From a virus (Duplodnaviria; Heunggongvirae; Uroviricota; Caudoviricetes): a stretch of DNA of 12,954 nt. Under the pieces are notes generated by a model that ran no database searches, was not told the DNA's origin, and saw only the letters and a list, made by a program, of their open reading frames with translations. Position numbers and translations under genes: made by a program. The first letter of the stretch is position 1; the number at the start of each line of letters is the position of its first letter. Positions 3,954-6,660 of this stretch are shown here, one piece after another. The stretch lies in the IMG/VR virus record IMGVR_UViG_2778261154_000015, positions 1-12,954 of that record; one strand, 5' to 3'.

Positions 3954-4142
3954 TTAAAATCCTGCCGGGATTTCGTTATCCTGGTGAATAACTTTATCGA
4001 CCGGATAACAGTTGCCTGGGATTTTCTGTTCGGTTGCTGCGGCCATACATTCCTGCATTGTTCTGTGAACACTGACTGCAATATCAACTGGCTCTCCGGA
4101 AACAAGAAAAACCGTCAGAATAAGTGCAAATACTGGATTCAT
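3954..4142 (-). CDS. ydfD: YdfD-like small protein with N-terminal hydrophobic segment (reported lysis protein of the dicB operon)
   Basis: 62-aa reading frame from the internal ATG (MNPVFALILTVFLVSG...). Its start overlaps the dicB stop in an ATGA arrangement. Length and position match ydfD of the K-12 dicB operon as I recall it. Confidence 0.6.
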   Translation of the reverse strand: MNPVFALILTVFLVSGEPVDIAVSVHRTMQECMAAATEQKIPGNCYPVDKVIHQDNEIPAGF

Positions 4143-4327: not shown

Positions 4328-4496
4328 TATCGCGCCCTCAACAATGAGTTTTGTGATGCGGTGCCTGGTGCTTCCAGGTGACGTTAACCAGTTAACAATT
4401 AACGCCGGATACAGAGAATCCACCCATAACACTGTTTTCGGTTTTAACTGTTCCGCGTGCGCTCAGCCGCATTCACCACATCACAAAATTCACTTT

Positions 4497-4554
4497 AAAA
4501 AGGGCGGCAGAGCAGTCACGGAGTAAAACTGATACCGCCAAACGTCACCAGAAA
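4497..4554 (-). ncRNA. dicF: DicF small regulatory RNA (Hfq-dependent antisense sRNA targeting ftsZ and other mRNAs) with its intrinsic terminator
   Basis: The minus-strand sequence reads UUUCUGGUGACGUUUGGCGGUAUCAGUUUUACUCCGUGACUGCUCUGCCGCCCUUUUU, matching the DicF sequence as I recall it. It ends in a GC-rich hairpin (GGCGG...CCGCC) followed by a U run, and lies about 170 nt upstream of dicB. Confidence 0.85.
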
Positions 4555-4887
4555 ATTGATAACAGAGGGCGTTGCAGCGGGGTTGTCACTTAAGCGTATG
4601 GTCAACCTGACAACCCGGTGTCCTCAACGGGGAAGGAATAACCCCGCCATACTTACCGCCGCGCCATTTCGCGGATTGCCACAACCGGAAGCGCACGGTC
4701 GACGAAAATTTAACGACAGACCATTTATGAACTAACAGCCTCGCCGTGCGCTTTCGCGTTATGCCCTGACTTTTCAGGGACATATCCTTTCAGTAAACTG
4801 TCAGTGCCGGATGCTCACCCGTGTCCGGCGCACGCACTCCACCTCACCCGTGGAGAACTCCTTAATTACCAACCCTCAGGAGGGTGA

Positions 4888-5121
4888 ATGTTAAAATCAA
4901 CTCTTATTGCTAAATGCCTTTATCAAAATCGCATGGTAAGCAGCATTTCAATAGGCGAGTCTGCAGTTAAAAGTATTTTCGAAGAGTACTTTCCCGGGCA
5001 TGATTTTAATAAATGGAATACCAAATTACCGCCAGCAGTTTCAACGCGTATTCTGAAAGCAACTGAAAGAGCAAGTACAATTCGCGTTAACTATTTCATT
5101 AAAGATTTGTGGGATCTTTGA
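4888..5121 (+). CDS. Hypothetical protein (77 aa), unrecognised; part of an AT-rich insert
   Basis: ATG preceded by a strong Shine-Dalgarno (cAGGAGGgtgaATG). AT-rich coding sequence on the opposite strand to the surrounding operon. Its 3' end overlaps the 3' end of the convergent 135-aa ORF by 23 nt. No family recognised, so coding status is uncertain. Confidence 0.45.
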   Translation: MLKSTLIAKCLYQNRMVSSISIGESAVKSIFEEYFPGHDFNKWNTKLPPAVSTRILKATERASTIRVNYFIKDLWDL

Positions 5122-5506
5122 TATCCACAGAGCCTAAAGTATGTGCATATGGATGTGCTATTGTGCGCCCTCGCAGATTTGCATCATTTTCTAAATTCAC
5201 TGAACGAAACAGGGCATCAACAAGGCTCTGTACAATGCAAAGGCAATCGAAGACTGTCGCTGTTTCTGTTTTGATTGATGAAAGAACATGGCCATTCACG
5301 CAAACAGAAATTACCCGTTCATTAACATCGCTTTCCTGCTTTTGATTATCAGAACCATATAGCCCAGAAAAAGCATTGCGCACATTACGAACCATATTAT
5401 CGATGGTTTCTTTTTTGGTGTATGCCGGGTCAATTTTCACCAGACTATCACCGAGAGTCGTTGCAGCAATTGTCTGGATTTCTTTTGGTAAATCTTTAAA
5501 TTCCAT
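5099..5506 (-). CDS. Hypothetical protein (135 aa), unrecognised; extra gene within the dicB operon
   Basis: ATG at 5506 preceded by GAGG at about 6 nt, and only 22 nt downstream of the ydfC stop on the same strand. No hydrophobic segments and no motif I recognise. Visibly AT-richer than neighbouring genes. Confidence 0.6.
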   Translation of the reverse strand: MEFKDLPKEIQTIAATTLGDSLVKIDPAYTKKETIDNMVRNVRNAFSGLYGSDNQKQESDVNERVISVCVNGHVLSSIKTETATVFDCLCIVQSLVDALFRSVNLENDANLRGRTIAHPYAHTLGSVDIKDPTNL

Positions 5507-5528
5507 TATTAGCCTCGTTGGTTAACCA

Positions 5529-5747
5529 TTAACGTGGGTATGTAATCATTCTGGCAATGCTTAATGCCGCTGCTTTTTCCAGATTGGTGATATCCTGCTC
5601 CAGAGCGGACAGATTTTCAGCCTGCTTAGCCCTGGCTTCATTGGCCCATTTCAGGTCCTGCGCAGCCTTAATTTTCTGGTGCATCCACTCATAAAGTTCA
5701 TCATCGGTATAGTCTGGCGCGATGATGACGGGTTCTCGTTTCTGCAT
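5529..5747 (-). CDS. ydfC: YdfC-like protein (72 aa)
   Basis: 72-aa frame from the internal ATG (MQKREPVIIAPDYTDDELYEWMHQ...) preceded by GAGGA. Length and position (third ORF of the dicB operon, after the 51- and 42-aa ORFs) match ydfC. The upstream part of the longer ORF-track frame is basic and low-complexity, and is probably not translated. Confidence 0.7.
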   Translation of the reverse strand: MQKREPVIIAPDYTDDELYEWMHQKIKAAQDLKWANEARAKQAENLSALEQDITNLEKAAALSIARMITYPR

Positions 5748-6129: not shown

Positions 6130-6175
6130 TGGATGTTAATTTAGTTTTCTCATGGTAATTGGTCAAGTATTTTTG
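6130..6175 (-). promoter_or_regulatory. Candidate sigma70 promoter for the dicB operon (dicBp-like)
   Basis: On the minus strand: TTGACC (plus coordinates 6161-6166), a 17-nt spacer, then TAAATT (6138-6143). This lies about 80 nt upstream of ydfA, in the 190-bp gap between dicA and ydfA. Promoter call made by eye only. Confidence 0.4.
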
Positions 6176-6252: not shown

Positions 6253-6660
6253 TTATTGATGTTTGTTACGTTTACGAGCTTCTAGTAGCTCGGTGAATAG
6301 GCGATTAAAATTCTCAACGCGGGCACGGAGTTCGCTGATTTGTGCTTGCTGCTCTGATTTTGGAAGTGCGCGATACAATCGCAACATCTCCAACTCATCT
6401 TCCGATAGGTCTAAGGCGCTGTTGAGTGCAACTGGGGGATCTGGTGTTTTATCCTCGTCACCAAACAGTATCCAGGTTGGTGAACATTGCAATACCTCAG
6501 CTAGGCGATGCAAATTTTGCCCGCGCGGGGCTGTATGGTCGCTTTCCCATAGTGAAATTGATGAGCCAGATACGCCAGCAGCTTTGCTTAAATCGTTTTG
6601 ACTTAAACCAACCTGTTTGCGTCTTTCTCTAATTCGTTGACCTAAAGTTTTCTCGTTCAT
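6253..6660 (-). CDS. dicA: HTH XRE-family repressor, DicA-like (P22 C2 / lambda cI functional analogue)
   Basis: 135-aa ORF with an N-terminal HTH (LSQNDLSKAAGVSGSSISLWE) and the conserved LQCSPTWILFGDEDK segment. Same length as K-12 DicA. Divergent from a Cro-like gene, with a short operator-bearing intergenic region between them. Confidence 0.85.
   Translation of the reverse strand: MNEKTLGQRIRERRKQVGLSQNDLSKAAGVSGSSISLWESDHTAPRGQNLHRLAEVLQCSPTWILFGDEDKTPDPPVALNSALDLSEDELEMLRLYRALPKSEQQAQISELRARVENFNRLFTELLEARKRNKHQ

Follow-up and report, generated by a model that had tools for sequence, protein, structure and literature searches.

The stretch of DNA analysed here (hereafter the window; 12,954 nucleotides (nt), IMG/VR record IMGVR_UViG_2778261154_000015) is the left arm of a mosaic lambdoid prophage. 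It opens with an integrase gene (1-1119), continues with a large exonuclease gene, the early-left operon and then the immunity region, and ends in the replication genes. Within its early-left (dicB) operon, a 634-bp block between ydfC and the small RNA (sRNA) gene dicF carries two open reading frames (ORFs), which encode proteins of 77 and 135 amino acids (aa) and are the subject of this study. The block is the form taken in Escherichia coli (Qin/Sp9-type) by an uncharacterised two-gene module that is widespread in prophages and located in the sieB slot. The features of the block and its immediate borders are as follows.

4875..5508: block with both ORF bodies, absent from the Qin prophage of E. 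coli K-12, 634 bp (blastn breakpoints)
5099..5506, minus strand: 135-aa gene of the dicB operon, corresponding to ECs_1763 (phrog_1363)
4888..5121, plus strand: 77-aa gene, reading against the early-left operon; its product has the sequence of ECs_1762 of O157 Sakai
5099..5121: 23-nt overlap of the 3' ends of the two genes
5357..5506, minus strand: N-terminal helical domain of the 135-aa protein, codons 1-50 (MEFKDLP...AFSGLY), common to at least five proteins with different C-termini at the slot
5102..5320, minus strand: partner domain of the 135-aa protein, codons 63-135 (alignment, phrog_23433, profile search and 100-locus survey)
4806..4887, plus strand: conserved upstream element of the 77-aa gene, with inverted repeat, GTGG... 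box and AGGAGG
5507..5528, minus strand: interval from ydfC to the 135-aa gene, containing the GAGG Shine-Dalgarno sequence of the latter; 5509-5528 kept in K-12
5529..5747, minus strand: ydfC, upstream neighbour of the 135-aa gene (phrog_1744)
4502..4553, minus strand: DicF sRNA, downstream operon neighbour (Rfam RF00039, 76.7 bits)

The ydfC-dicF block and its absence from K-12

On the minus strand, the early-left order is DicA-like repressor, ydfA/DUF1391, ydfB, ydfC, the 135-aa ORF, DicF, dicB, DUF1482/ydfD and the exonuclease gene. The 135-aa gene starts 22 nt past the ydfC stop codon behind its GAGG Shine-Dalgarno sequence, and AGGAGG lies 6 nt 5' of the ATG of the 77-aa gene. A preliminary description of this DNA, made from the sequence alone, had given these ORF coordinates and Shine-Dalgarno sequences, all of which proved correct on rechecking. 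The dicB-operon context that it proposed agrees with the Pfam matches in the operon (ydfA/DUF1391, DicB and DUF1482) and with the Rfam match to DicF. In line with that description, the 135-aa gene is part of the early operon, which is under repressor control, and the 77-aa gene runs against it.

Alignment of the window to K-12 Qin by blastn gave two collinear blocks of 95.5% identity separated by a single clean indel, with window positions 4875-5508 lacking a counterpart; window 5509 corresponds to position 4062 of the K-12 locus (L003) and window 4874 to position 4063. The block is thus accessory and missing from K-12 Qin, as had been supposed, and the ydfC-dicF separation noted earlier as roughly 1 kb amounts to 976 nt, compared with 341 nt in K-12. 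Its compositional distinctness was likewise borne out by computation: at 39.1%, the GC content of the block is below that of the window (47.8%) and of equally long flanks (48-49%), and only 0.6% of same-size windows are as low. GC at third codon positions is 0.30 and 0.31 in the two block genes, versus 0.51-0.55 in ydfABC. However, dicB is equally AT-rich (38% GC), so low GC is not peculiar to the block.

The cassette was found in 646 of 5426 complete E. coli genomes (~12%), including prophage Sp9 of O157:H7 Sakai, where ECs_1762 (77 aa) and ECs_1763 (135 aa) are both annotated as hypothetical; the notion of strain-specific cargo therefore has to be abandoned. ECs1763 has served as a marker of enterohaemorrhagic E. 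coli (EHEC) (PMC2713265, PMC4060028). The cassette occurs as two alleles that differ almost solely in codons 8-31 of the 135-aa gene: 40 of the 43 substitutions between the window and the Sakai allele fall there (window 5414-5485), and the patch looks like a recombination mosaic within the common N-terminal domain. The empty K-12-type junction was found in 2697 genomes and other cargo in ~600.

In K-12, the upstream element of the 77-aa gene (down to 4874) is still there, as is the Shine-Dalgarno sequence in front of the 135-aa gene, and only the ORF bodies are gone. Because of this pattern, K-12 Qin looks like a deletion derivative that lost its cargo, and the insertion into a K-12-like operon envisaged in the preliminary description is improbable. 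Accordingly, the dicBF operon known from textbooks, that of K-12, seems to have been stripped of its cargo.

The convergent pair, its slot and its upstream element

Homologues of the 77-aa protein are stand-alone proteins of constant length (74-80 aa) with 55-72% identity, present in many Enterobacterales. An exhaustive profile search recovered 163 cluster representatives, nearly all of them stand-alone proteins of 74-80 aa and reaching Burkholderia, and a search of genome contigs with a profile from a narrower alignment gave five species-representative loci. The protein has a grand average of hydropathy of -0.13 and is predicted to be a soluble five-helix bundle. The family is mostly acidic, with a median isoelectric point (pI) of 5.6, from which the basic E. 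coli copy (pI 9.5) stands apart. No arginine-rich RNA-binding motif is present in the 77-aa protein sequence.

The 135-aa protein was modelled with AlphaFold2 (mean predicted local distance difference test score, 73) as a helical hairpin (residues 8-47), a disordered stretch (51-60) and a beta-hairpin plus helices (65-124). In this prediction, a helical hairpin at the N-terminus is joined by a disordered linker to a small C-terminal domain of alpha/beta type. In other genera this C-terminal partner domain is a stand-alone protein of 77-80 aa, always convergent with a 77-aa family gene. Several N-terminal modules are found on the partner domain: in E. coli it follows the MEFKDLP hairpin, in Citrobacter and in L083 a zinc finger of the ClpX type, and in L090 and L094 a YdfC-like segment. 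Based on what is known of the ClpX zinc finger and of coiled coils, we infer that these modules may serve dimerisation. The YdfC-like segment belongs to a fusion at 3212-3823 of L090/L094, and BLASTP of the window ydfC product against the N-terminus of the L090 partner protein gave E = 1e-10, which hints that ydfC and the gene downstream of it work together.

Neither the 77-aa nor the 135-aa protein was matched in profile searches of Pfam, NCBIfam, PADLOC and PDB, and no fold match was obtained for either, in agreement with the earlier statement that both lie outside recognised families. Both nevertheless belong to full-length PHROG families, all of unknown function. Between E. coli, Serratia, Klebsiella and Dickeya, the ratio of nonsynonymous to synonymous substitution rates (dN/dS) lies at 0.08-0.33 in the 77-aa gene; in the 135-aa gene, the part encoding the C-terminal domain gives 0.19-0.43. 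Because dN/dS is low and the PHROG families are full-length, both ORFs are, judging from their sequences, genuine genes under purifying selection rather than chance ORFs.

The 77-aa gene in Serratia, Klebsiella and Dickeya prophages always faces a gene for a 77-79-aa protein, homologous to residues 63-135 of the window 135-aa protein, with a 3' overlap of exactly 23 nt. In a survey of 100 loci carrying a 77-aa family gene, a convergent partner-domain ORF was present at 98. The 3' overlap measures 23 nt at 89 of these; at five it is 26 nt, at three 51 nt and at one 24 nt. The two unpaired loci are a contig end and a metagenomic contig with another gene context. Each of the 17 lineages defined at 90% identity has the partner, among them divergent copies from Citrobacter and one from Burkholderia, and the pair as a whole was found in prophages of Serratia, Klebsiella, Proteus, Dickeya, Citrobacter and Burkholderia. 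Distances within the 77-aa and partner families are correlated (Mantel r = 0.78), which linkage alone could cause. Together these comparisons place the 77-aa gene and its partner as an old conserved convergent pair rather than as arbitrary neighbours.

Two further ideas about the pair were rejected. The 23-nt overlap was considered as a functional element in itself, but other pairs at the slot overlap by 0, 20, 23 or 41 nt, and its exactness probably reflects conserved C-termini. Charge complementarity between the two proteins was also discarded, both families being mildly acidic.

The position of the pair is that of sieB in related prophages. The order in Rac is racR, ydaG, ydaF (DUF1391) facing sieB, the sRNA KilS and kilR, and in lambda N faces sieB. 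The window matches the Rac order, with the repressor, ydfA (DUF1391) and, further on, the 135-aa gene facing the 77-aa gene, followed by DicF and dicB. Locus L085, of the Klebsiella type, has the partner as its first gene past a leftward promoter adjoining cI. By gene order and orientation, then, the 77-aa gene occupies the sieB position of lambdoid early-left operons.

The same E. coli flanks also hold alternative pairs, encoding proteins of 212 aa + 69 aa (~594 genomes), 201 aa + 63 aa (8 genomes), 179 aa + 80 aa, and 133 aa + 28/64 aa. Each of these combines a different C-terminus on the common N-terminal domain with a different rightward gene. The leftward proteins of all slot variants have their first 46-50 codons in common, and homology breaks off after codons 46-50, so that five slot variants show a constant N-terminus, a variable C-terminus and a matching small neighbour gene. 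The inverted repeat of the upstream element is present in all slot-variant loci, and the variable region is flanked by conserved sequence on both sides. In the 201-aa form, found in E. coli and Salmonella, precisely the 77-aa ORF body has been replaced, leaving the partner domain without a 77-aa gene. The ydfC-dicF slot is a place where lambdoid prophages swap small accessory gene pairs.

Between genera, conservation is higher in the sequence 5' of the 77-aa gene than in its coding sequence. It consists of an inverted repeat, generally GCCTG-N14-CAGGC and in the window GCCGGA-N12-TCCGGC (4806-4829), followed by a GGTGGTATCTT-like box and then the Shine-Dalgarno sequence. This element also lies 5' of sieB in lambda (L106 1398-1421, lambda 34397-34420), in K-12 Rac (L105 3066-3093) and in L094, as well as 5' of rightward genes other than sieB. 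From sieB of lambda and Rac to Serratia, Klebsiella, Proteus and Citrobacter prophages, the inverted repeat and a GGTGGT box were always found ~40-90 nt 5' of a rightward accessory gene. The loop of the inverted repeat is a perfect DnaA box, TTATCCACA, in some copies (L080 copy 1, L024 and L095). In L080 the element directly follows the terminator of the preceding rightward gene, which would suit a promoter/operator; this is its probable role, an RNA element being another candidate. The 77-aa gene behaves like a moron, with its own conserved upstream element.

Other readings of the 5' region were discarded. RNAalifold analysis of the 5' untranslated region of the 77-aa gene supported the upstream inverted repeat alone, with five pairs and weak covariation, and not a hairpin that would hide the Shine-Dalgarno sequence. 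The inverted repeat was also rejected as an intrinsic terminator on either strand, its loop being 12-14 nt long with no T-run after it. A consensus scan of the window found no terminator directly past the 77-aa gene. One terminator-like match lies further along the same strand:

5552..5579, plus strand: terminator-like hairpin and T-run in ydfC (consensus match; such matches are no more frequent than in shuffled sequence)

A rightward transcript ending there could be antisense to the whole 135-aa gene.

In Sakai Sp9 (L002 5912-6260), a second copy of the element was observed; the rightward zinc-ribbon ORF that it precedes (MNTIKFSCPECGG*...CKNCGH...) has a stop codon interrupting it. The ORF is antisense to the annotated ECs_5719, which may be a mis-call.

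Possible roles of the pair

Published experiments deal with ECs1762 of EHEC Sakai, whose protein sequence is identical to that of the window 77-aa protein. ECs1762 showed significant enrichment among the RNA-bound proteins of uninduced EHEC Sakai obtained by TRAPP, in which proteins associated with total RNA are purified, and its crosslinking to RNA was confirmed by a polynucleotide kinase (PNK) assay, although according to the authors it contains no known RNA-binding domain (PMC7618764). No paper characterising the 77-aa/135-aa pair was found in the literature searched. The present analysis thus supplies a genomic setting for a published RNA-binding protein without a known RNA-binding domain.

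The reading that we favour, though as possible rather than probable, is that the 77-aa protein is an effector made in the lysogen and that its early-operon partner is an antidote, in the manner of SieB/Esc. The 77-aa protein alone would be present in the lysogen, where it would act on a superinfecting phage or on leaky early transcripts, probably via RNA. Derepression of the early promoter would lead to antisense transcription across the 77-aa gene and lower its expression, and the partner protein would neutralise residual 77-aa protein by contact, sparing the lytic growth of the prophage itself. This reading is supported by the pairing, the selection on both genes, the equivalence of slots, the common upstream element, the alternative pairs, the orphans and the ECs1762 RNA data. 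Orphans of the partner domain in the 201-aa form would be tolerable for an antidote.

Several observations weigh against this reading. A simple sigma-70 scan of the window detected no consensus promoter at the upstream element, and its -10-like box is degenerate. The 77-aa protein has neither similarity to SieB nor a transmembrane segment, and no defence model of PADLOC (PADLOC-DB 2.0) was matched. An identical 77-aa protein occurs in E. coli beside partner-domain alleles that differ by 22-26%, so tight cognate specificity is not evident. The two genes overlap physically, and linkage alone could account for their co-occurrence. As for RNA, TRAPP also recovers DNA-binding proteins (PMC7618764), and RNA binding may not be a property of the 77-aa family, the E. 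coli copy being the pI outlier.

The SieB/Esc superinfection-exclusion system of P22, lambda and Rac, as reportedly described by Ranade and Poteete (1993), combines an effector expressed in the lysogen with a phage-encoded escape function, and the logic of the proposed effector and antidote is alike. The 77-aa gene has the position and orientation of sieB, lying against the early-left operon and converging on the first early genes, and it has the conserved upstream element in common with sieB. However, SieB is a membrane protein of ~160-190 aa, whereas the window protein is 77 aa long and soluble by prediction. Pfam PF14163 did not match the 77-aa or the 135-aa protein, whereas the true SieB in L094 scores E = 8e-20. 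In addition, the putative antidote here is a separate convergent gene, unlike Esc, which is an internal in-frame product of the same gene.

Other known systems resemble the pair in part. Nun of HK022 excludes lambda by binding nut RNA on incoming phage transcripts. Like Nun, the 77-aa protein is small and prophage-encoded, and it may likewise be made in the lysogen and bind RNA, given the in vivo RNA association of ECs1762 (PMC7618764). Unlike Nun, it lacks an arginine-rich motif and belongs to a mostly acidic family, and Nun lies in the N position reading leftward, opposite to the 77-aa gene. The BstA/aba system (PMC8585504) is likewise an accessory function adjoining the repressor of lambdoid/P22-like prophages that needs a means to spare its own lytic cycle, but BstA is a large protein without homology to the proteins described here, and it owes self-immunity to a DNA site lying within its gene. 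Lambdoid morons (HK97 gp15, lambda bor/lom) are comparable in their presence or absence between otherwise collinear prophages, deviant base composition and apparent regulatory element of their own. The 77-aa gene differs from them in that no terminator of its own was found, and it stands tail-to-tail with an early-operon gene in a pair conserved as a unit.

The polarity of the pair may be the reverse. In that case, which appears somewhat unlikely, the early protein would be a small host-takeover effector, with the partner domain active and the N-terminal module dimerising, and the 77-aa protein would be its cognate inhibitor made in the lysogen, shielding the lysogen from leaky early expression and blocking related superinfecting phages that need the effector. 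The constant N-termini, variable C-termini and matching small neighbours of the five slot variants do resemble polymorphic effector/immunity loci, the operon already has toxic early products in DicF and DicB (PMC10448788), and the one 77-aa family member without a partner (L019) would be harmless for an inhibitor. The 201-aa form, however, would be awkward for an unguarded effector, and no toxin or enzyme signature was found in the Pfam and fold searches. Polymorphic immunity genes, moreover, are co-directional with the toxin gene, whereas the genes here are convergent. The same convergence speaks against a toxin-antitoxin addiction module stabilising the prophage, which seems highly improbable. 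Two small linked genes in the immunity region of a prophage, an inverted repeat that overlaps a putative promoter and so resembles antitoxin autoregulation, and a convergent 3' overlap recalling type I systems would all suit such a module. Yet the genes do not form the co-directional operon of type II systems, and neither a toxin or antitoxin family (Pfam, NCBIfam, PADLOC) nor an immunity family or fold was detectable. Both products are conserved proteins, which leaves no RNA antitoxin, and the inverted repeat also stands 5' of unrelated genes such as sieB. In addition, ECs1762 was overexpressed from pBAD24 for purification, and toxicity was not mentioned (PMC7618764).

The two genes may also have no functional tie, the 77-aa gene being a lysogenic-conversion gene for an RNA-binding regulator of host or prophage mRNAs and the 135-aa gene an unrelated early gene, with co-travel resulting from their overlap and from recombination-prone conserved flanks. 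The RNA association of ECs1762 in EHEC (PMC7618764) would fit this, as would the divergent partner alleles beside one 77-aa protein and the conserved sequence bounding the variable region; abutting convergent genes are, besides, usual at the slot (N/sieB, ydaF/sieB). Nonetheless, the pair has been kept from E. coli to Burkholderia at 30-60% protein identity despite many changes of neighbouring genes, a distance over which unrelated neighbours in mosaic lambdoid genomes are usually separated, and we regard independence of the two genes as doubtful. That they are spurious or decaying ORFs in AT-rich filler DNA is scarcely credible: low GC favours long chance ORFs and the annotation is merely 'hypothetical', but the evidence on selection and families already contradicts it.

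The effector-antidote reading can be extended. In its widest form, the slot would be a diversity hotspot of at least five effector/antidote pairs. The 77-aa protein would have a new small helical fold and serve the prophage as an RNA-binding exclusion factor acting on incoming-phage transcripts, and the convergent early gene would confer self-immunity. This extension is speculative and rather unlikely; if true, the two genes would represent a new class of small exclusion systems of prophages, endowed with cognate escape and occurring in ~1 in 8 E. coli genomes and across Enterobacterales. The module is already in databases as hypothetical genes (both are labelled so in hundreds of E. coli genomes, including O157:H7) and is more widespread and more structured than the preliminary description had suggested. 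The conserved pairing, the sieB position and the sieB-type upstream element make the two orphan ORFs testable as an exclusion or regulatory module that includes its own escape, and the position makes the pair a good lead for a new module of phage exclusion or regulation.

Neighbouring features of the operon

Two further features of the early-left operon were located upstream of ydfC.

6253-6660, minus strand: DicA-like repressor gene
6138..6166, minus strand: dicBp-like early-left promoter TTGACC-17-TAAATT, downstream of the DicA-like repressor gene (consensus scan)

Regulation of the early-left promoter by DicA has been described (PMC10448788). In some relatives a PaaA2/ParE toxin-antitoxin pair lies between the repressor gene and ydfA (L005 2694-3172; L108 1181-1652), and this interval is a second variable slot in the same operon.

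In the DicF leader, a 65-aa ORF (window 4586-4783, minus strand) matches phrog_8854; the region is untranslated in K-12. From the 3' end of DicF to a point upstream of dicB (4343-4507), the window is 79% identical to the Rac kilS-kilR region (L105 2750-2916), and the DicF/dicB and kilS/kilR units, each consisting of an sRNA and a division inhibitor, appear to be related. At ~5100-5200 of L004-L006, dicB and flanks of 86% identity are present, and DicF was not found by Rfam at the gathering score; it may have diverged or been lost in these loci. Finally, FDAARGOS_943 (L001), the closest relative among complete genomes, carries a type I HsdM methyltransferase gene (12200-13447) just past the replication module, where the window differs.

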